This document shows, in pieces, positions 5,944 to 49,300 of a stretch of 52,137 nt of DNA (the first letter of the stretch is position 1; each line of letters starts with the position of its first letter). The stretch is from a virus. Lineage: Duplodnaviria; Heunggongvirae; Uroviricota; Caudoviricetes. The translations under genes were made by a program, and so were the position numbers. The DNA is taken from IMG/VR virus record IMGVR_UViG_2778261534_000002; one strand, given 5' to 3'. Below the pieces are notes generated by a model. The model ran no database searches, was not told where the DNA came from, and saw only the letters and a list, made by a program, of their open reading frames with translations.

Positions 5944-7626
5944 ATGGCAACGAAAGACAAAAACAAAGGCTTTCTGTCAGCATTGAAGAAAGCCTTCAAC
6001 GGTGGTGATGTTACGCCCGCCGATCCGGTCGTTTTTACGAGCGGGCATAGTGTCGTTGCTCGTTCCGGCCTGTCTGCTTTACGCCCAGGTATACTGGGGA
6101 GCAACAGCGATGGCATGACGAGTGCAGCAGATTCAATTTCTTTATCCTCTGAACTGCCCGGCGAGCGCCTGCAAAAGTACAACATCCTGGAAACGATGGC
6201 TAAAAGCCCGACTATCTCGACGGCTTTAAATATTCACATTGCACATGCGCTTGCGCCTTCAAAAAAAACCGGACAAGCATTCATCCTTTCGCCAAAGGAT
6301 GGTTCCGATGCTGAGGCAGTAAGTAGATGTGAAGAGTTAACTGCTGATTTGGGGGCGATGATTAATGACGGACTTCCTTCATGGGCCATGATTATGGCGA
6401 TCTTTGGGGTGTCTTATGTCCGCCCTTATGCTGAACAGGGCAGGGGGATAACAGGCATTGAGTCCAGTTATTACACTCTGCCACACTTCGTCCAGGAGTT
6501 TTATCGTGGTAGCCAGCTGGTAGGTTTCAGTGGTGATTACATCCTGGATACGCATAGTTTGCGCAGAGTAATAACCGAACCGTGGAATCTGGTTTCCATG
6601 AAAAATCCCTATTGGACGCCGCAGCATAAAGTTATTCCGGTCAGCTACGGCACAAAAGGGTACTCACTGTTAAGTGAGCAGGCTGATAAGCCGTTAATGG
6701 AGACGCAGAATTACGGAACTTCATTCCTTGAATACAGCTATGAACCTTACCTGAATTTATGTGCTGCGCTCGCCGCGCTGAAATCAACGCGAAATAATGC
6801 AGCCAAAATTGACCGCCTGATTGCTCTTACGACGAACACACTGGACCCGGTTAATGCGGCGAACTATACGCGTGGCGTCAGCCAGGCATTGAAGCGACAT
6901 AGTGACCTGGTGGCGCAAAGGTCGATTAATGCCAACGCTATTCCGACGGTGCTTAACCACCTGATACCTGTTATGGGAGACGGGAAGAACGGTATCACTA
7001 TTGATACGCAATCCATACCCGCAGATATCAGTGGTATCGAAGACGTTATGTTTCACCTCCGGCAGCTTGCTGCAAGCCTAGGCATTGACGCAACAATGCT
7101 TGGCTGGGCTGATCAGATGAGTGGTGGACTTGGGGAAGGCGGTTGGCAGCAAACAGCTATCCAGGCCGCATTACGTGCGAACTGGATCAGACAGGCCGCG
7201 CAGCGAACTATTTATCGGCTTCATGATATTCACCTCGCTTATAAATACGGGAAGGTTTACACCGAAAAAAACCGTCCTTATGACGTGCAATTCAACTCAA
7301 TGAACACTGCTATCCAGGAAGAGGAAAACCGGGAACTGGATGCACGCGCCAACTTTGTTGCTGTCATCTCCCAAATTATGGACCAGATCCAGAACAACCC
7401 GAAACTGGCTGGTAGTGACGCGTTTATGCGTTATCTGTTCACCGAGCAGTTGCACATCGACGATGACACTCTCAACACCATGATCAAAGAGTTTAAGGCG
7501 AATGAATCAGAGCAAAACAACGAGCATGGTATGTACGAATCCGCGCCGTTGTCGTCCGGTGACGATCCGGAAAACTGGACGCCAGAACAGTTAATAAACT
7601 TTGCAAAATTTGTGATGAGCAATTAA
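5944..7626 (+). CDS. portal-like head protein (Prt-like)
   Basis: 560 aa; size and position immediately upstream of a head-processing-like gene; call by synteny, not motif. Confidence 0.4.
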   Translation: MATKDKNKGFLSALKKAFNGGDVTPADPVVFTSGHSVVARSGLSALRPGILGSNSDGMTSAADSISLSSELPGERLQKYNILETMAKSPTISTALNIHIAHALAPSKKTGQAFILSPKDGSDAEAVSRCEELTADLGAMINDGLPSWAMIMAIFGVSYVRPYAEQGRGITGIESSYYTLPHFVQEFYRGSQLVGFSGDYILDTHSLRRVITEPWNLVSMKNPYWTPQHKVIPVSYGTKGYSLLSEQADKPLMETQNYGTSFLEYSYEPYLNLCAALAALKSTRNNAAKIDRLIALTTNTLDPVNAANYTRGVSQALKRHSDLVAQRSINANAIPTVLNHLIPVMGDGKNGITIDTQSIPADISGIEDVMFHLRQLAASLGIDATMLGWADQMSGGLGEGGWQQTAIQAALRANWIRQAAQRTIYRLHDIHLAYKYGKVYTEKNRPYDVQFNSMNTAIQEEENRELDARANFVAVISQIMDQIQNNPKLAGSDAFMRYLFTEQLHIDDDTLNTMIKEFKANESEQNNEHGMYESAPLSSGDDPENWTPEQLINFAKFVMSN

Positions 7627-7639
7627 CCGGAGGGAAATA

Positions 7640-8638
7640 ATGCAATCACTGAATACTGTTACGGATCGCTTCTCCCTGGTAGAGAAAATCCGCAAACACA
7701 CACCGCAGAACAACCGAAATTATGTCATTCAGTCGGTACGAGACACATTCAACTCGCCAGAAACAAAAGAGCGTATCGCGCTGGGTGAGATGTATGGTTA
7801 TTACGGTCATGGTCGCCGGGCGATGCACTATAACAAAACGAAAAGCCTGAACTTGCCGGAAGTCTCTGTTGTGATGGTAGATGGGAAGCCTGTTGTATTG
7901 GAGAACGTGCCGTCAAACAGGACTATCGACATTTCGATTGACGACAACGGCATTGTTACGCATACGCAGGAAATACTGGATACAGACACCGGGCGTATTG
8001 TTCAGGGCATGATTAATTCTGGTGCTGGTGGTTGGTCGTGGGCTACATCTGGTCCAGATTCATCGGTATCCCTGGTAAAGTCTTTCCACGGCTTTGATTA
8101 CGTAACTGTGCCTAACTATATCAGCCTCGACAAGAAAAGCCTGATGCTTGAATCAGCAGAAGAGCGCGATGCGGCTATTCATGCAGCACTTATCGAACAA
8201 GGTTTTACCGATAACGCTGCTACGGATCTGGTTCACCACTTTTCAGCAATGAAAAATCAGCAAGCCATGCTCGAATCTGCACATCGTGAAGCCCTGGAAT
8301 CAGAATTGATGCTCCTTGAAGTGGAAAACATACAGCTTCGAGATAAGCTGCGCGCTCAAACAGCGATGATGGAAAGCCAGGGGGAAAATGCAAAGCAATG
8401 CCGCCGGATTTTGCGTGACGCTATCCAGGAAATGCCTGTTTTTATCAGCGCAGAACAGCGCCGGGCGCTCTGCCGTATGCAGTCTGAAGATGATGCCCGC
8501 ATAGTGGCTGCGATGCTTGAATCTCTTGGGGCAAATGCTACTTATGGCTTACCGGTATCAGGCAAGAAAGAACCAGAGTTATCACCGAAGGAGAACAAAA
8601 ACACCACCCCGTTACTCTTCGTTTCTAGAAGGGGGTAA
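7640..8638 (+). CDS. head morphogenesis/processing protein (Pro-like)
   Basis: 332 aa, tightly follows portal-like gene; C-terminal coiled coil. Confidence 0.35.
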   Translation: MQSLNTVTDRFSLVEKIRKHTPQNNRNYVIQSVRDTFNSPETKERIALGEMYGYYGHGRRAMHYNKTKSLNLPEVSVVMVDGKPVVLENVPSNRTIDISIDDNGIVTHTQEILDTDTGRIVQGMINSGAGGWSWATSGPDSSVSLVKSFHGFDYVTVPNYISLDKKSLMLESAEERDAAIHAALIEQGFTDNAATDLVHHFSAMKNQQAMLESAHREALESELMLLEVENIQLRDKLRAQTAMMESQGENAKQCRRILRDAIQEMPVFISAEQRRALCRMQSEDDARIVAAMLESLGANATYGLPVSGKKEPELSPKENKNTTPLLFVSRRG

Positions 8639-9898: not shown

Positions 9899-10084
9899 CT
9901 GCATCATCGACTGAAGTCATCCATTGCTGAAATTTTTAGTTGATCTTCCATGTTTTCAGGCTTATATTCATGCCGTCGTAGCAAATTCTGCGACCGGGTT
10001 TGACAGCCTGAATACTTACGCGGACAACCGCACATTTCCGATATTGCGGTATTTTTGTGTCCGTAAAACCACGTTACGCCCGAA

Positions 10085-10180
10085 TTATGGTGGGGCGTGA
10101 TGGGGAGGCTTCGGCCTGCTGGTTTCGTAAGTGCCAGTCTGTCAACCCTGTCACGTCCTGCCACCTGTTTGACAGCGGGT
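10085..10180 (+). ncRNA. c4-like antisense RNA candidate
   Basis: structured leader upstream of icd-like gene; TCGTAAGT (10125-10132) is complementary to ACTTACGA at the icd RBS (10197-10204); GGC-ttcg-GCC tetraloop hairpin; boundaries approximate. Confidence 0.3.
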
Positions 10181-10214
10181 CGCAGGTTGTTTATCAACTT
10201 ACGAGGCCGTAACT

Positions 10215-10439
10215 ATGGTTAATGCCAATCCTTGCTCACGCCCAGAATTCATCTGGCGTTTCCACTCCCTGCAAAAACACTGCGATCACTTCGCAATTGC
10301 CGCAACCGAAAAAGAAGCCCGTTCTCTGATCCCTGATCAGTATGGTGTTCTTACTGGTCGTTTCTCTACTTCCCCACAACCAAACACTAATCCCTGGTAT
10401 CGCAATATTACCAATCCCGGAATTGCGGAGGCACACTGA
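10215..10439 (+). CDS. Icd-like small protein of immunity module 1
   Basis: 74 aa; paralog of 49339..49554 (shared EFIWRF and AATE-EARS motifs); stop overlaps ant start (TGATG). Confidence 0.5.
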   Translation: MVNANPCSRPEFIWRFHSLQKHCDHFAIAATEKEARSLIPDQYGVLTGRFSTSPQPNTNPWYRNITNPGIAEAH

Positions 10440-19625: not shown

Positions 19626-19756
19626 TTGATTAAGGTCACTCTTTACTCTAAAAGCAAATCCGACCTGTTGCATATAGACCATCCTTGAGTAGTATCTCTC
19701 TTGTTTTACAAATCTAACGTTGTTGTTATTATTTCGCATATTTACTATCAATGGGT

Positions 19757-19771
19757 GTGTTAGAAAATAGC
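19757..19771. promoter_or_regulatory. operator-like 15-bp motif
   Basis: GTGTTAGAAAATAGC. Confidence 0.35.
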
Positions 19772-19904
19772 GCGAAAGAGAAGGCGTCGCAGTGAATATT
19801 CTGAAACATCCCCACATGCCGCAGCTCTTAGAGAACTGGAGAAAAACCCAGATCTAATCAAAAGGAACCATGAGCATTACGAGCAGGTTCGCGTCCTGGA
19901 CTGG

Positions 19905-20213
19905 TTGTATCGCAATATGCGTTATGTGTATGAGCATACTCACGCCACTCCAAACGGTGGCCTGCGAGGCATAAGGACGGCAATAAAAATGGTGGCAGAG
20001 GGCCAAAAGAAGGGATATCCCGATCTTTCTATAGACCTTGCTTGTGGGGGATACCACGGAATGCGCATTGAGATGAAACATGGGAGAAATCGCCTGACTC
20101 CCGAACAACTCGTCTGGATGACCCGCCTCACTGAAGCCGGTTACTACTGCTTTGAGGCGCGCAGTGCCGCTGAAGCCATAAAAGCTATCACGGAGTATGT
20201 TTGTCTTGATTAA
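19905..20213 (+). CDS. VRR-NUC domain nuclease
   Basis: 102 aa; GYPDLSIDL...EMK arrangement typical of VRR-NUC (PD-(D/E)xK) proteins. Confidence 0.6.
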   Translation: MYRNMRYVYEHTHATPNGGLRGIRTAIKMVAEGQKKGYPDLSIDLACGGYHGMRIEMKHGRNRLTPEQLVWMTRLTEAGYYCFEARSAAEAIKAITEYVCLD

Positions 20214-20227
20214 ACGGAGAAATCGTT

Positions 20228-20428
20228 TTGCGTTTACTTAACGTGGCAGAACTTATCCCTGCAGGAACTAATGCTATCGCTCGTCGTCGCTCATGGCAGC
20301 AGGCTCTATGTATTGAGATCTCGAAACGTATCAATGGAAGTTTTGAAGCTCGCAATATTGTTACTGGCGATAAGGTTCACATAACCCCGGAAAGTGCAAG
20401 CGCTGATGATTGGGAGTTTGTACATTGA
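20228..20428 (+). CDS. small DUF2829-like protein
   Basis: 66 aa; ARRRSW ... ADDWEFV signature as in the other DUF2829-like domains. Confidence 0.4.
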   Translation: MRLLNVAELIPAGTNAIARRRSWQQALCIEISKRINGSFEARNIVTGDKVHITPESASADDWEFVH

Positions 20429-20724
20429 GCAAAAAATATTATGTGAGTCTGGCGTTCGCTGACGATGCGGGGAGGACGCGGAGTATCACGTTGAGCACAC
20501 CGGTTAAGGCTGTGACAGCGCCGTTAATCCGTGAAGCTCTCAGAGAGCTGGAATTGGGTGAAAACTCGGCACTGTTGTCGGTTAGTTGGTTAGGGAAAAT
20601 GTCAGAGAAACAATACGTGGATGGAGTTACCCCAATAACAGTAATGAGGCTACTTTCATTGCTGCAATGGGCCATCGTACCTGTATTTATCGCGTATCTT
20701 ATTTATCAGGCTGCAACACAGTAA
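20410..20724 (+). CDS. hypothetical protein with C-terminal transmembrane helix
   Basis: 104 aa; hydrophobic C-terminus LLSLLQWAIVPVFIAYLIY; followed by strong terminator. Confidence 0.4.
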   Translation: MGVCTLSKKYYVSLAFADDAGRTRSITLSTPVKAVTAPLIREALRELELGENSALLSVSWLGKMSEKQYVDGVTPITVMRLLSLLQWAIVPVFIAYLIYQAATQ

Positions 20725-20730
20725 TTGCAT

Positions 20731-20758
20731 AAAAACCCGCCAATTAGCGGGTTTTTTG
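20731..20758. terminator. rho-independent terminator
   Basis: ACCCGC-caatta-GCGGGT followed by TTTTTTG; A-run upstream allows bidirectional use. Confidence 0.8.
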
Positions 20759-20798
20759 TTTATTGCATCTTCCGGTACCGCCATCAAACTAATAAAAT

Positions 20799-20813
20799 AT
20801 GTTAGAAAACTAA
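20799..20813. promoter_or_regulatory. operator-like 15-bp motif (consensus copy)
   Basis: ATGTTAGAAAACTAA, identical 15-mer also at 42923 and as reverse complement at 31428 and 48523. Confidence 0.45.
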
Positions 20814-20822
20814 TTTAACAAA

Positions 20823-22046
20823 GTGACGGGAACAGCAATGAGTCAACACACTGATACTTCTAATCTGGAAATTATCTCGACAGCAATTGAAACGCTGCGC
20901 ACACAAATCGCTCTTATACAGAAACGGAATCCGGGTGATGACCTGTCAAAGCGACTGCACGAGAGTGTCATTGCCACTACAGATAACCTGGTGGCGGAAA
21001 TCAACAAGCTGCTTGATGATGGGGCAGTTGATTACAATAAGCTGGTGGATCAGTTTGAGGAATACCAACAAGCCGTTAATGATGGCTTGATCCGTTTTTC
21101 ACAAGTCACAGGCGTATCAGCGACAGTTGAAAGCCTGGGTGATGCAGTTAATCAATTTGCCGCGAATATGCGTAATGAGATCGGCAATCTGGAAGCGCGT
21201 CTTGAACAGGCAAATACACTGCGTAAATCTGCCGAAGCCGATTTGAACCGTTACAAAAAAGACTATCCGCCCAGCCTGACAAAGCGGCTGGATGTTGCGG
21301 AGAAGGATAACCGCGCGCTGAAAAGAGAGCGCCGGGAACTAAAAGAGCGTTTAACCAAGCTCAATCAGCAATGCATTGATTATCAAGGCGAAGGCGTCAC
21401 ACTGCGTAAAAAGTTGGCTACAGCGCAGAGCATTATCGAAACATTAAAGCGAGAGTGCTCACAGCTTGGTCACGATCTGAACCGTGCTTGTGGCATGGGA
21501 CAAAGACCAGAGACATTTCCACTCATGTATGATGGAAGGGATGCCATTGCCTACATCCATGAGTATCCGCACGGCCTGGTTGCGGAAACAGGGCAGCGTG
21601 GCGAAGCACTGTTGACGGCTAATTACCATCAACAAATCAGAACCAATCGCCTGTTAACGATGGATGTGATCCCATCGGTATGGGGAACGCCGCTTTACTA
21701 TCGCCTGCCGGGCTTCGAAAAGGACTGGAATACCGACATAGACGAATGTCTCGCAGATAAAATTATGGCGTACCTGGAGACGGATTTTCCGCGCTTATAT
21801 CGCCGGATTATGGACTCTAAGGATGCGCCAATCGATGAATTAAAAATGCGTCCGGAGACGCTGGAGGCAATCAAGCAGACGGAGTTTGATACTGTATTCA
21901 GTGTGGCCTGCATTCCAAGCTGTTTCCATGAAAGCATCCCGTTCATGCAAGGAGATCGTCGTCAGGAAATCATTGACGCTTGCCGGGTATGGGCGAACGA
22001 ATGGGATAAGAAGAATGGGGGTGTAGAAGATCTTTATGGGAAATAA
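20823..22046 (+). CDS. hypothetical protein, N-terminal coiled coil
   Basis: 407-aa ORF (probable start ATG 20838); coiled-coil N-half, Cys/His-containing C-half; no recognizable catalytic motif. Confidence 0.5.
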   Translation: MTGTAMSQHTDTSNLEIISTAIETLRTQIALIQKRNPGDDLSKRLHESVIATTDNLVAEINKLLDDGAVDYNKLVDQFEEYQQAVNDGLIRFSQVTGVSATVESLGDAVNQFAANMRNEIGNLEARLEQANTLRKSAEADLNRYKKDYPPSLTKRLDVAEKDNRALKRERRELKERLTKLNQQCIDYQGEGVTLRKKLATAQSIIETLKRECSQLGHDLNRACGMGQRPETFPLMYDGRDAIAYIHEYPHGLVAETGQRGEALLTANYHQQIRTNRLLTMDVIPSVWGTPLYYRLPGFEKDWNTDIDECLADKIMAYLETDFPRLYRRIMDSKDAPIDELKMRPETLEAIKQTEFDTVFSVACIPSCFHESIPFMQGDRRQEIIDACRVWANEWDKKNGGVEDLYGK

Positions 22047-22047
22047 T

Positions 22048-22062
22048 GTGTTAGAAATCTAA
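22048..22062. promoter_or_regulatory. operator-like 15-bp motif
   Basis: GTGTTAGAAATCTAA. Confidence 0.35.
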
Positions 22063-22203
22063 AATCACAATTCGAATGTATTGATTGTGGAGATAACTTA
22101 ACATAGAATTTTCCTTGCTGGTGGGCAGTACCCACGTTTCGCTTGCTGGGCTTGATAGTCACTTATTGGTTATTGTTCGCCCACCAGCATTTAACAAATT
22201 AAA

Positions 22204-22218
22204 GTGTTAGAAAAGGAT
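22204..22218. promoter_or_regulatory. operator-like 15-bp motif
   Basis: GTGTTAGAAAAGGAT. Confidence 0.35.
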
Positions 22219-22699
22219 GGTAATGCAAGAGCACGCTTTGGCACCGTGCAGGCCAAAGTTCAGCAGGTTTAGTGCGGAAAGTGGTTTCAGAGAGAGCACT
22301 TTGCGGAGTAAACGACAATACATGTTGAGCCACGGAAGGTCTTTTTAAGGTGTTCATTGATGATGGTCCGGCAGAGAGTAACGGTACATGCTGCATCTAA
22401 TCATCAATGCACATCTTCAACATTAAGGAGGCATAGGGATTTTTGTGGCGGTTACCTTTTGCCCTGAGTCTCCTTAATGTTGCGGTAATGCACCTATGCG
22501 GATGTGGCCTTGCATTGTGTCTTGAAAGAATGGGGTAAGGCCGGGGATATCCCCAGGGGGAGGCACCCCCGCTGCAACGAACAGCCACAGACGGCAGTCG
22601 AGTGATGGAAACGTGTAAAGACTTTAAACCTCGTTACGGCTGGCGTGGCAAACGCGACAACCGAGACAGAGCGGTGACGGGCGGAGAGAGTGCCGCATC

Positions 22700-22820
22700 A
22701 AGAAAGAAGCCGACTTGTGATCCCTTTCTGCGGGCATTTGAAAGTGAATCCAGCTCAGGCAGTCGGCTTCTTTCTTGTGTGAGATGTAGCGTATTTGCCC
22801 ATCTTCGGGTGGGCTTTTTT
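22700..22820 (+). ncRNA. candidate structured small RNA
   Basis: perfect 16-bp inverted repeat AAGAAAGAAGCCGACT (22700-22715) / AGTCGGCTTCTTTCTT (22761-22776) around a 45-nt loop, then hairpin GCCCA-N8-TGGGC plus TTTTTT (22797-22820). Confidence 0.3.
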
Positions 22821-23280
22821 AGGGTTTTCGTCATGGTTAGCGACTTTGCGGCGGTTTAGAAACCGACCATTAAAGTAAATGCAAACGATGATCTGATGAT
22901 GGTAGCGGCCTAAGAAGCCAGACGCCACGGGGTATGAGTCGTCCCCCGTCAAAAAATCGACCGCAGAGTGTCCCCGTCTGTGTATTAGGGAACGGGGAGG
23001 CATAACAGGCAAGGGCGCTGGTGTGATTAACCAGATGAATGAGAAGGGTCAGGTCTTTCTGGTCAGCGCCCTTACCTGTTACGTCCCTCCCGCGTAACAG
23101 CCATTGATTAATGGCTTTCTGGGATAACATCCTACTACGGGTATATCCCGTCATGCTGAAGGCGCTAATCACGCTGGAAGCCAGGGTTGTGCATCCCCTG
23201 TTACCGAATTGCAGCCAGGGCGCGGTGCGCCGAAAAGCATACGGAGGTGGAAGCCCTCGCCGGAGACGTACCCGGCAAGT

Positions 23281-23357
23281 GATGGTGTAGCTCAGTAGGA
23301 TAGAGCAGCAGCCTTCTAAGCTGTCGGTCGGTGGTTCGAATCCACCCACCATCGCCA
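23281..23357 (+). tRNA. tRNA-Arg (anticodon UCU)
   Basis: 77 nt; 7-bp acceptor stem GATGGTG/CACCATC, anticodon loop CTTCTAA, T-loop GGTTCGAATCC, 3' CCA. Confidence 0.9.
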
Positions 23358-23362
23358 ATTTA

Positions 23363-23449
23363 GGGGAGTTAGTCCGTAGGGGTAGCGGGGTAGACTGTAA
23401 ATCTACTGTCATTGCGACTCGGGTGGTTCGACTCCATCACTCCCCACCA
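23363..23449 (+). tRNA. tRNA-Tyr (anticodon GUA), long variable arm
   Basis: 87 nt; acceptor GGGGAGT/ACTCCCC, anticodon arm GTAGA-CTGTAAA-TCTAC, variable-arm stem GTC/GAC, 3' CCA; D-arm atypical. Confidence 0.7.
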
Positions 23450-23453
23450 AATT

Positions 23454-23529
23454 GCCGGTTTAGCTCAGTTGGTAGAGCGCCTGCCTTGTAAGCAGGATGT
23501 CAGCGGTTCGAGTCCGTTAACCGGCACCA
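23454..23529 (+). tRNA. tRNA-Thr (anticodon UGU)
   Basis: 76 nt; TAGCTCAGTTGGTAGAGC D-arm, anticodon loop CTTGTAA, T-loop GGTTCGAGTCC, 3' CCA. Confidence 0.9.
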
Positions 23530-23580
23530 ACACAACAGGTAAGGGCATTCTCCCTTATGGGGCTTGGCTTAAATGCATCG

Positions 23581-23609
23581 AGTGCTCTTACCGTTGTGAT
23601 GAAGTGCAG
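23581..23609. repeat. 30-nt spacer repeat, copy 1
   Basis: AGTGCTCTTACCGTTGTGATGAAGTGCAG; related copies at 23811 and 24112. Confidence 0.5.
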
Positions 23610-23724
23610 CTCTTTGAAGCAACCAGAAGATAAGCATCTGGCTTCACAACATAAACCGCAGGAACGACCAATAAACGGTAGTCCGTATGGAGAACACCCC
23701 GTTGAGGAAGAGGCCTGGCCGGAA

Positions 23725-23741
23725 CCGTAACCGGCACCACA
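23725..23741. repeat. duplicated tRNA-Thr 3' end fragment
   Basis: CCGTAACCGGCACCAC repeats the 3' end of tRNA-Thr (CCGTTAACCGGCACCA, 23514-23529) about 210 nt downstream. Confidence 0.45.
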
Positions 23742-23810
23742 ACGTTGAGAACACTGGCGTAACGGGGTCATATCCCAATCTATGAATAAATGTTGCGTTG
23801 CAGCGTGACA

Positions 23811-23844
23811 ACCAGTGTTCTCAACATTGTGGTGAATGCACAGG
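23811..23844. repeat. 30-nt spacer repeat, copy 2
   Basis: CCAGTGTTCTCAACATTGTGGTGAATGCACAGG; its first 16 nt are also the reverse complement of AACGTTGAGAACACTGG at 23741-23757 (large stem-loop). Confidence 0.45.
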
Positions 23845-23931
23845 CTGATGTGCCGCAACTACAGTAGTGCGCGCTTTGCGGGGCTTGCTACAACCCTGTG
23901 TCGGAGTTCAGCACCGACCATCACAATCACT

Positions 23932-24018
23932 GGAGAGTAGGGAGCATGGTGCTCAAGCGGTCTTGAAAACCGTCCCATTGCGCAAGCGATGATGGTTCGA
24001 TTCCATTACTCTCCGCCA
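23932..24018 (+). tRNA. tRNA-Ser (anticodon UGA), long variable arm
   Basis: 87 nt; acceptor GGAGAGT/ACTCTCC, anticodon loop CTTGAAA, T-loop GGTTCGATTCC, 3' CCA. Confidence 0.85.
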
Positions 24019-24142: not shown

Positions 24143-24281
24143 TAAGCGCACGCGGAACAGTTAAAACAATCCTCCTTAGTGGTTAAGTCAAACATCCCGG
24201 CGTTAATTGTTAACTGGTTAACGTCACCTGGAGGCACCAGGCACCGCAGCTTTTTTATTCGGTAAATAATGGAGTGAGAGG

Positions 24282-24518
24282 ATGCAGAACAATCCGAACA
24301 AATGTCGAACGCTATGGGTGCGGTTATATATTTATGTCGTCCTCTGTTTGATTGTGTCACTGGTTCTGTATGTTTGGCTTTTGCCAAATATGATCTCATC
24401 TGACAGCACAATACTTGTATTGTTGGGAGTCCTTCTCGCGCTCATTTACCCGGCTTTTGCAGTAGTCTTTTTTCGTGAAAAAACCAGGAAATTGATTAAT
24501 GAAAAAAACGTTGATTAG
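24282..24518 (+). CDS. small integral membrane protein
   Basis: 78 aa, two hydrophobic helices, SD GGAGTGAGAGG before ATG; overlaps start of the SPFH lipoprotein gene. Confidence 0.45.
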   Translation: MQNNPNKCRTLWVRLYIYVVLCLIVSLVLYVWLLPNMISSDSTILVLLGVLLALIYPAFAVVFFREKTRKLINEKNVD

Positions 24519-25326
24519 TGCAGCGATTATTTTTGGTTCTTTATGTCTGACCGGATGCGATCGGGTAGAGCCAGGTAACGTAGGGATCAAAGTAAATAAG
24601 CTGGGGGATGATAAAGGTATCGGTGAAGTAGTTGGCGTTGGTCGCTACTGGACAGGCTTGAATACTGAAGTTTATATCTTCCCGACCTTTAAGCAAATGA
24701 AGACATACGATGAGCCGTTCAGCTTCCAGATGAGCGACGGAACAACCATTGGTTACCACATCGGCGTAGCCTACAAGGTTGATCCAGCAAAAGTCACAAC
24801 GGTATTTCAGACCTATCGCAAAGGTGTAGATGATATTACTGATACCGATCTACGCCAGAAGGTTGCAGATGCTCTGAACCGGTTAGCCAGCAAAATGACC
24901 ACCGACAAATTTATCGACGGTGGCAAATCTGAATTGCTTGATGCAGCCCTTAAAGACATTCAGGAAGAAATGACGCCCATCGGTATTCAGGTAATGAGCC
25001 TCTCATATGTGGGCAAGCCGGAGTACCCGCCAACCGTTATCGACAGCATTAATGCCAAAGTCACGGCGAACCAGAAAACTCTGCAACGCGAGCAGGAAGT
25101 CAAGCAACGCGAAGCAGAAGCCAACATGCTGCGCGCAGAAGCTGCTGGACAGGCCGATGCCATTCGCACAAAAGCCCAGGCTGAAGCTGATGCCATTCGT
25201 TTACGCGGTGAGGCTCTGCGCCAGAACCCCGGCGTTATGGAGTTGGAAGCGATCAACAAATGGAACGGAACGCTACCGCAGTATATGACCAGTAATACCG
25301 CTGTTCCGTTTGTTCCGGTGAAATAA
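24499..25326 (+). CDS. SPFH/band-7 (prohibitin-like) lipoprotein
   Basis: 275 aa; signal peptide with lipobox LTGC; SPFH-like core followed by Ala/Glu-rich coiled-coil tail. Confidence 0.65.
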   Translation: MKKTLISAAIIFGSLCLTGCDRVEPGNVGIKVNKLGDDKGIGEVVGVGRYWTGLNTEVYIFPTFKQMKTYDEPFSFQMSDGTTIGYHIGVAYKVDPAKVTTVFQTYRKGVDDITDTDLRQKVADALNRLASKMTTDKFIDGGKSELLDAALKDIQEEMTPIGIQVMSLSYVGKPEYPPTVIDSINAKVTANQKTLQREQEVKQREAEANMLRAEAAGQADAIRTKAQAEADAIRLRGEALRQNPGVMELEAINKWNGTLPQYMTSNTAVPFVPVK

Positions 25327-25339
25327 CCAAATAGATAAC

Positions 25340-25471
25340 ATGATGGAATTTTGGACGTTTGCCGACAAGAACCCTTGGTGGACATTTTTATTTCTGCTGG
25401 TGGTTGCATATGGGGTCGAGCAAGCAGCAAAAGCCTTACGCGGTCCTGGCAAAAAGCGTAAGCGGAATTAA
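25340..25471 (+). CDS. small membrane protein (43 aa)
   Basis: MMEFWTFADKNPWWTFLFLLVVAYGV...KKRKRN; single TM helix with basic tail; below the ORF-track length cutoff; found by eye. Confidence 0.3.
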   Translation: MMEFWTFADKNPWWTFLFLLVVAYGVEQAAKALRGPGKKRKRN

Positions 25472-25480
25472 CAGTAATCT

Positions 25481-25556
25481 GGCCCTTTAGCTCAGTGGTT
25501 AGAGCTGGCGACTCATAATCGCACGGTCACCGGTTCAAGTCCGGTAGGGGCCACCA
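25481..25556 (+). tRNA. tRNA-Ile2 (anticodon CAU, lysidine type) or tRNA-Met
   Basis: 76 nt; very close to E. coli ileX-type sequence as recalled (GGCCC.TTAGCTCAGTGGTTAGAGC...CTCATAA...GGTTCAAGTCC...GGGGCCACCA). Confidence 0.85.
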
Positions 25557-49025: not shown

Positions 49026-49131
49026 AAATACAGACTGTTGCGCCCTGGCATTATCGTGGGGTATATTTCTACGGCACCTTAGAAAAACGGGTGCCGGGAT
49101 TGGAACCCCGGATAATGTCAAAGGCGACACA

Positions 49132-49153
49132 GACGCCGAAAGCGTCTTTTTTT
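49132..49153 (+). terminator. rho-independent terminator
   Basis: GACGC-cgaaa-GCGTC followed by TTTTTTT. Confidence 0.65.
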
Positions 49154-49169
49154 GTGTCATGCCATCGCA

Positions 49170-49300
49170 CAGCCATACGTAGCGTTTAGCTCAGAGATCA
49201 ATGGTAGTGCTGGCTGGGCTGCCGAAAGGCAGGCCGGTTCCCTTTGACGCCGGTAGTTCCAACCCAGTCAGTGCTACCGCCATTGAGATTGGAACCTCAC
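49170..49300 (+). ncRNA. c4-like antisense RNA candidate (module 2)
   Basis: structured leader upstream of second icd-like gene; CCTTTGAC (49232-49239) is complementary to GTCAAAGG at the icd RBS (49311-49318); CTGCC-gaaa-GGCAG hairpin; boundaries approximate. Confidence 0.3.

Follow-up and report, generated by a model that had tools for sequence, protein, structure and literature searches.

Candidate operator control, domain architecture and possible role of pmgS in a D6-like plasmid prophage of the P1 family

The pmgS gene and its surroundings

Within a 52,137-nucleotide (nt) stretch of viral DNA (IMG/VR record IMGVR_UViG_2778261534_000002; hereafter the window, meaning the whole stretch that was analysed) we examined a gene for a coiled-coil protein that lies on the plus strand between a pmgR-like gene and a tRNA cluster. 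Alignment identifies the window as a D6-like plasmid prophage of the P1 family, distinct from D6 itself: in a whole-window comparison it is collinear with Escherichia phage D6 at 92-99% identity, with a few segments replaced. Around the gene, a stretch of approximately 2 kb shares 99% DNA identity with D6. The D6 annotation places darB-ulx-orf13-pmgM-orf11-pmgR upstream of the gene, and the tRNA cluster, lpa, pacA, pacB and c1 downstream of it.

By the same comparison the locus is the already catalogued pmgS gene, D6 orf9, and a member of PHROG 1660. It is therefore not new: the gene and its phage family had both been described, the gene without an assigned function. Its product shares 99.3% protein identity with that of D6 orf9 and matches the PHROG 1660 profile over residues 1-401 of 402 (E = 1.4e-146). 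The PmgS protein of P1 (P1_gp093) aligns with it over residues 11-395 at 21% identity (BLASTP, E = 2e-13), and the homology is collinear along the full length, including the coiled coil and the C-terminal domain described below. The position of the gene directly after pmgR is the same in the window, in D6, in P1 and in P1-family relatives.

An earlier reading of the sequence, made without database searches (the sequence-only reading), had called a 407-amino-acid open reading frame (ORF) at 20823-22046 and had taken an internal ATG as the likely start. The frame is real, and it spans 407 amino acids when read from the GTG at 20823. However, the N-termini of the homologues (MSQ/MNQ...) begin at the ATG at 20838, which is preceded, 6 nt upstream, by a Shine-Dalgarno-like GGGA element; we therefore favour the 402-amino-acid product over the one that starts at the GTG annotated in D6.

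The gene had also been described as insulated by terminators, and on the upstream side this holds. The intrinsic terminator between pmgR and pmgS has a 10-bp stem with five G-C pairs, a 6-nt loop and a T-run; its folding energy is -15.5 kcal/mol (z = -3.4), and none of 200 shuffled sequences was as stable. A terminator is found at the equivalent place in four relatives (L005, L008, L013 and L014). On the downstream side, by contrast, there is no canonical terminator after the stop codon, and the next strong one lies at 22797-22814. The description of a coiled-coil protein without recognisable function is supported, and the gene follows a real terminator and forms a transcription unit of its own. 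The features of the locus are collected in Table 1.

Table 1. Features in and around pmgS (positions are those of the window; the operator, promoter and domain rows are predictions)
Feature	Position	Strand	Basis or remark
pmgR-like gene (D6 orf10)	20410..20724	+	Upstream of pmgS, at the end of the preceding unit; D6 annotation transferred to the window, ORF list
Intrinsic terminator between pmgR and pmgS	20731..20756	+	Terminator scan, folding
Operator region (candidate D6-type C1 operator overlapping the pmgS promoter)	20787..20816	+	Motif statistics, relatives, P1 analogy
pmgS-like coding sequence	20838..22046	+	402 amino acids plus stop; homology, homologue N-termini
Helical, coiled-coil-type region, residues 7-217	20856..21488	+	AlphaFold2; sub-threshold coiled-coil matches
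Beta-rich domain plus two helices, family-specific, residues 226-329	21513..21824	+	AlphaFold2, column conservation
Alpha-CTD / RAD51-N-type double helix-hairpin-helix domain, residues 330-395	21825..22022	+	
Second operator-type site	22049..22065	+	3 nt past the stop; equivalents just after pmgS in L013 and L014
Sigma-70-type promoter TTGATT-17-TAGAAT	22081..22109	+	Reads away from pmgS; belongs to the next unit
Weaker operator-like site	22205..22221	+	Core exact, 3' part degenerate; score 20.3, against 25-34 for strong sites

A repeated motif and the promoter region of pmgS

Where the sequence-only reading had reported an operator-like site before the ATG, we find the 17-bp sequence TGTTAGAAAACTAATTT at 20800-20816, 21 nt upstream of the start codon. 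Its 9-bp core, TGTTAGAAA, is present in 11 exact copies in 52 kb, as against approximately 0.4 expected by our own arithmetic for a random 9-mer when both strands are counted, and it is the commonest 9-mer of the window apart from words derived from Chi. When up to one mismatch was allowed the number of matches rose to 24, compared with 12.5 +/- 3.5 in shuffled sequences, and none of 100 shuffles reached that number.

To list and score the sites we used a position-weight scan of the window. Strong copies of the motif lie 20 nt upstream of the c1 start codon (31433-), approximately 80 nt upstream of lpa (27000-), upstream of repL (8657-) and of ref (47870+), and before the c4 RNA/icd/ant immunity region (9856+), where the copy has an inverted partner; a further inverted pair (42924+/42945-) precedes a pdcB-like gene. 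The scan found no copy before the late operons prt-pro or darB. The further operator-like sites that had been noted after pmgS are likewise present, a second one just past the stop codon and a weaker one farther downstream (Table 1). This placement matches the annotated C1 regulon of P1 (c1, lpa, repL, c4/icd/ant and ref), and the P1 GenBank record assigns control of pmgR and pmgS, from a sigma-70 promoter, to the C1 operators OpmgRa/b (formerly Op86a,b). Because the motif stands where C1 operators stand in P1, we conclude that it is the putative operator of a D6-type C1 repressor.

In several respects the motif resembles the C1 operators of P1 and P7, which are short, A/T-rich, asymmetric sites of approximately 17 bp, dispersed singly or in inverted pairs, that overlap or adjoin sigma-70 promoters belonging to the same early genes. 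The sequence itself is different: the P1 operator consensus, ATTGCTCTAATAAATTT, was considered as the identity of the window motif and does not match it, and the sites in the window are predicted ones. A sequence so unlike that of P1, combined with a placement so like that of its regulon, fits a repressor of different specificity, to which the published P1 binding data would not apply; D6 encodes a C1-type repressor of its own. The P1 and D6-like arrangements differ in layout as well. In P1, pmgR and pmgS share one promoter, with a hairpin between two operators upstream of pmgR, whereas in the window a terminator and the operator/promoter region stand between the two genes.

The P1 sequence offers a related observation. 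At 10153-10218 of the P1 locus (L004) the inverted pmgR operators Op86a/b flank a terminator-like hairpin (AAAACGTGATG...CATCACGTTTT), and a terminator-plus-operator theme upstream of pmgS is thus common to P1 and the D6-like elements, in a different order.

Within the operator region of the window, a weak left half-site (AAACTAATA, 20787-20795) overlaps a -10-like hexamer, TAAAAT (20793-20798), and the strong right site follows. Relatives whose PmgS proteins are 45-55% identical keep the same order of elements, namely the pmgR stop codon, terminator, promoter, dyad, approximately 30 nt and the ATG, and in an alignment of the operator region with these relatives the sequence CTAATAnAAT is invariant. 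Their dyad reads TTTCTAATA..TTAGAAA, with the -10 of the promoter at its centre. Two of these promoters are near consensus (TTTACA-16-TATAAT in L012, 11 of 12 positions; TTTACT-16-TATAAT in L013, 10 of 12), and in both the -10 is central in a dyad of the form TTTCTAATA-N4-(T/C)(A/G)TTAGAAA. In L013 and L014, the two relatives whose loci extend to lpa and c1, the motif is also found before lpa, before c1 and right after pmgS.

Several points weigh against this reading of the promoter region. The window has a poor -35 and a degenerate left half-site, and the promoter scan called nothing at 20793-20798. Moreover, the link between the motif and the C1 protein of D6 is drawn from placement, and so is operator control of pmgS as such; of the control that had been proposed, it is the motif and its regulon-like distribution that are real.

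The same distribution bears on a rival account, in which the motif would be a D6-type late promoter element recognised by Lpa and pmgS would consequently be a late gene. We regard this as very improbable. The motif directly precedes c1, lpa, repL, c4/icd/ant and ref, all of which are C1-controlled in P1, and is missing before prt-pro and darB, and it forms inverted pairs (42924/42945, and the dyad of L012), as operators do. It is true that the late promoters of P1 also carry a conserved 9-bp element, that the core motif is 9 bp long and that TG-T-TAGAAA resembles an extended -10, and the pmg genes were first named as presumed morphogenetic genes. Nevertheless, the motif is unlike the -22 boxes listed in the P1 record (AAATGACTA, AAGTTACTT and ATGTGACTT), and those boxes are not enriched in the window: a P1-type late box, A-W-R-T-K-A-C-T-W, placed 4-9 nt before a -10 hexamer occurs six times, compared with 5.8 expected, and none of the six lies before pmgS. 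An operator-type site is present before pmgS and a P1-type late box is not, with the limit that the P1 box may differ from that of D6.

The stretch that follows pmgS has features of its own. Approximately 1.2 kb (22047-23280) is free of genes in the annotation of D6 and of the relatives; it opens with the operator-type site at 22049 and the promoter at 22081-22109, which is found at the same spot in L012, L013 and L014, it holds the terminator at 22797-22814, and it ends at the tRNA cluster. Islands within it (approximately 22465-22713) share 76-85% identity with L012 and L014. An Rfam search of this stretch returned nothing above the family thresholds. The region may give rise to a C1-controlled non-coding transcript or to a tRNA leader.

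Domain architecture of PmgS

The PmgS family is small. A word-indexed search recovered 11 clusters, and an exhaustive profile search recovered 87 representatives among 1.84 billion, most of which have the same length and layout. The exhaustive search was required because the word-indexed search missed P1 PmgS, as did a TBLASTN search against phages at E = 1e-5. Among P1-like phage-plasmids the gene is one of 21 that are strictly conserved in 77 of these elements (PMC9603915). The structure prediction that we use here is an AlphaFold2 model built from a 61-sequence alignment, with a mean predicted local distance difference test (pLDDT) score of 86; an earlier run with nine close homologues gave a pLDDT of 61 and an unreliable middle domain, and was discarded in favour of the larger alignment.

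These searches for remote homology and structure, which the sequence-only reading had proposed as a check, yielded homology to the PmgS family and a three-part architecture. Only PmgS was matched, and confident homology to a characterised structural protein was not found.

The first part corresponds to the N-terminal coiled coil of about 200 amino acids that had been described, and consists of helices at residues 7-30, 35-91, 97-142 and 146-217, for a coiled-coil-type region of approximately 210 residues that presumably drives oligomerisation, into dimers or higher forms. ERM_helical, DivIVA, SMC, Rad50, JetC and LmuB were considered as homologues of this region and rejected: their matches reflect coiled-coil composition only and fall far below the family cut-offs (Pfam, NCBIfam and PADLOC).

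Beyond the coiled coil, the model places a beta-rich domain at residues 226-290 and helices at 299-393. For the beta-rich middle domain no confident fold match or structural relative was found. The residues conserved across the family are mostly structural (G219, H264, R268, W282, P285, W297, P318, R323 and W389). The conserved Cys, His and acidic residues to which attention had been drawn are conserved within the D6-like clade only; C207, C358, H364, D276, D302 and E303 are not conserved in the 61-member family, for which reason we rejected a Cys/His metal site or an acidic catalytic site. We agree that the protein has no recognisable catalytic motif, as the conservation analysis of the 61 members revealed neither a catalytic nor a metal-binding one.

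We differ from the earlier description on the C-terminal region, in which it had recognised no domain. The last approximately 70 residues are a double helix-hairpin-helix (HhH) domain of the type found in the RNA polymerase alpha-CTD and the N-terminal domain of RAD51. The five-helix fold of the model can be superposed on alpha-CTD, and the evidence from sequence profiles is independent of that model: searched against the PDB, a profile of the C-terminal half matched the HhH domain of Brr2 (2.3e-7), the RAD51 N-terminal domain (1.3e-6) and alpha-CTD (2.5e-6), and among the 61 family members Pfam HHH_5 is detected in 12 and RNA_pol_A_CTD in eight. Taken alone against Pfam, the window protein gave no match for this domain and only sub-threshold matches for the coiled coil.

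In the range of the family profile scores (E = 1e-6 to 2e-7), and in the K-G-x-G hairpin that most PmgS family members carry, the domain resembles those of alpha-CTD (RNA_pol_A_CTD), the RAD51 N-terminus and Hel308/Brr2. It differs in its context, being joined in PmgS to a coiled coil and a beta domain rather than to a polymerase or recombinase core. DNA binding is predicted from the fold, and two features of the sequence count against it. The second hairpin of the window protein has no glycines and reads P368-F-M-Q371, where 33-39 of the 61 relatives have K-G-[ILM]-G; and the residues with which alpha-CTD contacts DNA are not conserved, an Arg or Lys being found at the position equivalent to R265 in only 17 of the 61. 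It is therefore uncertain whether the domain binds DNA, and its partner may be a protein instead.

These details also bear on the possibility that PmgS is a mimic of alpha-CTD, a coiled-coil dimer that would compete for UP elements or for alpha-CTD-docking activators and would thereby divert host transcription at an early stage of infection. Several relatives keep, in the alignment, an L-S-x-R-[ST]-A-N-x-L stretch like the 265 determinant of alpha-CTD, and small proteins with an alpha-CTD domain are present in other phages. However, the RAD51 N-terminal domain, the HhH domains of Hel308/Brr2 and the acidic repeats of NusA have the same fold and score equally well or better; neither the R265 equivalent nor the G-x-G hairpin is family-wide, and the hairpin has been lost in the window protein itself. 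As the gene neighbourhoods described below give no pointer to transcription either, we consider such a role decidedly unlikely.

Gene neighbourhoods, possible role and other features of the window

We examined approximately a dozen loci that encode PmgS homologues. In the D6-like and other P1-like elements, pmgS lies downstream of darB and, where the locus extends far enough, upstream of lpa-pacAB-c1. Distant homologues in unrelated elements are situated in early or recombination regions. In phage 15G the gene order is RecT, a Mu Gam-like gene and then PmgS. In Vibrio phage douglas 12A4 (L011 1-9081), PmgS is followed by an MT-A70 methyltransferase, lies near a gene for a 3026-amino-acid polyvalent protein, and is divergent from an early operon that includes ant, a methylase, a DnaC-type loader and an exonuclease. 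Elsewhere, a prophage end carries PmgS, a small ORF and Dam; one locus has a C5 methylase, a small ORF and then PmgS; and another has an RdgC-like gene followed by PmgS. In a conjugative element (L016 9944-13185), PmgS directly precedes an AcrVA2-like gene, with a DarB-like methylase-helicase approximately 2.8 kb downstream. Among all of these loci, a PmgS gene within a portal-protease-capsid module was never seen. The neighbourhoods are consistent in pointing to the company of early DNA metabolism and anti-defence genes.

The polyvalent protein of Vibrio phage douglas 12A4 contains LPD39, inorganic pyrophosphatase and methyltransferase domains.

In the databases, however, the gene is described otherwise. 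GenBank labels D6 orf9 a "putative prohead scaffolding protein", PHROG 1660 carries the label "head morphogenesis", and PmgS is elsewhere called "putative morphogenetic"; these labels are carried without experiment. Under the scaffold reading, PmgS would be a coiled-coil protein that co-assembles with the major capsid protein and exits before DNA packaging. Known scaffolds (P22 gp8, phi29 gp7 and lambda Nu3) are elongated, highly helical, prone to form coiled coils and similar to PmgS in size, and the long helical region that AlphaFold2 predicts for PmgS at residues 7-217 has the composition typical of such proteins. They are also essential late proteins encoded beside the portal, protease and capsid genes, and here PmgS departs from them. 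With pmgS deleted in frame, P1 still forms virions that are infectious and show normal antirestriction (PMC9024508, Supplementary Table S3), and knockdown of pmgS in P1 by CRISPR interference gave an efficiency of plating of 1.2 (PMC10695390), whereas a sole scaffold would be essential. By analogy with this distant homologue, PmgS of the window is presumably dispensable too. PmgS is missing from the list of P1 virion proteins, although the same would be expected of a scaffold. The authors of the P1 virion study note that the scaffold gene of P1 has not been identified and that the N-terminal part of gp23 probably fills this role (Gonzales et al.).

Location and control argue in the same direction. 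In the window, pmgS lies approximately 12 kb from prt-pro (5944-8638), with repL, the c4/icd/ant immunity region and darB between them, and it stands behind an operator-type site and not a P1-type late box; in P1 the homologue is controlled by the repressor. Its relatives occur in a conjugative, non-phage element and in recombination or methylase operons, and it carries an alpha-CTD-like domain that known scaffolds do not need. On the other side stands the neighbouring pmgR, which is required for head completion in P1. Because P1 without pmgS is infectious and the neighbourhoods are never head modules, we regard the "scaffolding" label as unsupported and probably wrong; a scaffold function itself seems to us highly unlikely.

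Another account takes its cue from the neighbours. PmgS could be an anti-defence or establishment factor that acts in the first minutes after DNA entry, together with orphan methyltransferases or DarB-type polyvalent proteins, or else a coiled-coil decoy against SMC-type systems (Wadjet/Lamassu) or end-processing nucleases. Recurrent DNA methyltransferase neighbours (MT-A70, Dam and C5), proximity to DarB-like proteins, an adjoining AcrVA2-like gene and an adjoining Mu Gam-like end-protection gene would all suit such a role, as would repressor control, which would bring about expression exactly when naked DNA enters the cell, and strict conservation in the P1-like phage-plasmids of a gene that is dispensable in laboratory hosts. 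Yet P1 without pmgS plates normally on EcoA, EcoB and EcoK hosts, the JetC, LmuB and SMC matches reflect coiled-coil composition, no known anti-defence family matches the protein, and the neighbourhood signal may merely reflect membership of an early region. On balance we think this account doubtful, with a modest chance of being right; it overlaps in part with the explanation that we prefer.

That preferred explanation is as follows. Transcription of pmgM-orf11-pmgR would end at the terminator upstream of pmgS, and a weak sigma-70 promoter, with its -10 hexamer, TAAAAT, inside or beside the candidate C1 site TGTTAGAAAACTAATTT, would drive pmgS. Because of this position of the -10, pmgS should be silent in the lysogen and should come on after infection or induction, together with lpa, repL, ant and ref, the other early functions under C1 control. 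The protein would form a coiled-coil oligomer that bears a family-specific beta-rich domain and a C-terminal double HhH module, and this module would hold DNA or a DNA-bound partner. Rather than a prohead scaffold, PmgS would be a non-essential accessory factor that takes part in early DNA transactions, for example in recombination, in protection by methylation or in the establishment of the genome. For the composite as a whole, a C1-repressed early accessory factor that acts on DNA or on a DNA-bound partner, we estimate a probability of roughly 0.5. The narrower claim, that the gene is a member of the C1 regulon and an orthologue of PmgS and does not encode a scaffold, we consider highly likely.

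Beyond the weak promoter, the placement-based operator and the altered C-terminal hairpin discussed above, three considerations detract from this explanation. In P1 the co-transcribed and equally C1-controlled pmgR is essential for head completion, and C1 or early control therefore leaves a morphogenetic role possible. The genetic results were obtained with P1, whose PmgS shares only 21% identity with the protein of the window. Finally, the neighbourhood evidence comes from approximately a dozen loci and not from a statistical survey.

These results do not overturn current understanding, and their value is in large part corrective. A gene carried by hundreds of phage-plasmids of E. coli and Salmonella is labelled "prohead scaffolding protein" or "head morphogenesis" in databases, and the evidence instead suggests an early, repressor-controlled, dispensable protein with a domain of DNA-binding type. 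To the sequence-only reading, whose finding was real and largely read correctly and whose interpretation is supported in part, we add a candidate D6-type C1 operator with an outline of its regulon, the assignment of a domain to the PmgS family and evidence against the scaffold label. Should the association with genes of recombination, methylation and anti-defence be real, it would introduce a new player in the establishment of phage-plasmids in new hosts. More speculatively, and with rather long odds, PmgS may represent a class of factors, so far overlooked, with which phage-plasmids, temperate phages and conjugative elements establish their DNA early on. In this class a coiled-coil oligomer would use an alpha-CTD/RAD51-N-like module to bind incoming DNA or a host DNA-surveillance machine (SMC-type Wadjet/Lamassu and RecBCD-type end processing being candidates), and would work alongside orphan methyltransferases and polyvalent DarB-type proteins to shield or install the genome that has just entered. 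If true, this would account at once for the strict conservation of the gene, for its dispensability in laboratory hosts and for its repression in the lysogen.

Several other features of the window were recorded in the course of the comparison. The pmgM-like gene (19719-20213) has one A fewer than D6 in an A-run that lies within a copy of the operator core (19758). As a consequence, the pmgM frame annotated in D6 meets a TAG at codon 15 in the window, which could reflect a frameshift, a sequencing error or a misannotated start; the pmgM homologues in P1, L012 and L014 have a VRR-NUC nuclease domain. Among the departures of the window from D6, the tciA/tciB-like genes of D6 are replaced at 24250-25470 by a different segment, which encodes a 275-amino-acid ORF (24499-25326) that is SPFH/band-7-like by eye.

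Two c4 antisense-RNA loci are present, at 9962-10168 and 49074-49284, one with an a1/b1 target element and the other with an isrK-like RNA; because each lies beside icd and antirepressor genes, the element has two immunity-I-type regions. Five tRNA genes were identified by ARAGORN and Rfam at 23281-24018 and 25481-25556 (Arg-tct, Tyr-gta, Thr-tgt, Ser-tga and Met-cat), all on the plus strand like pmgS. The tRNAs in the D6 record (Asn, Thr and Ser) are on the opposite strand to those of the window, so that either the strand in the record is wrong or the clusters differ.

The commonest 8-mer of the window is the Chi octamer, GCTGGTGG, with 32 copies in 52 kb against approximately 1.6 expected by our own arithmetic. 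Two opposed copies, at 22117-22124 (+) and 22181-22188 (-), lie between the promoter at 22081-22109 and the weaker operator-like site at 22205, and the first of them overlaps the start of a hairpin at 22121-22135.

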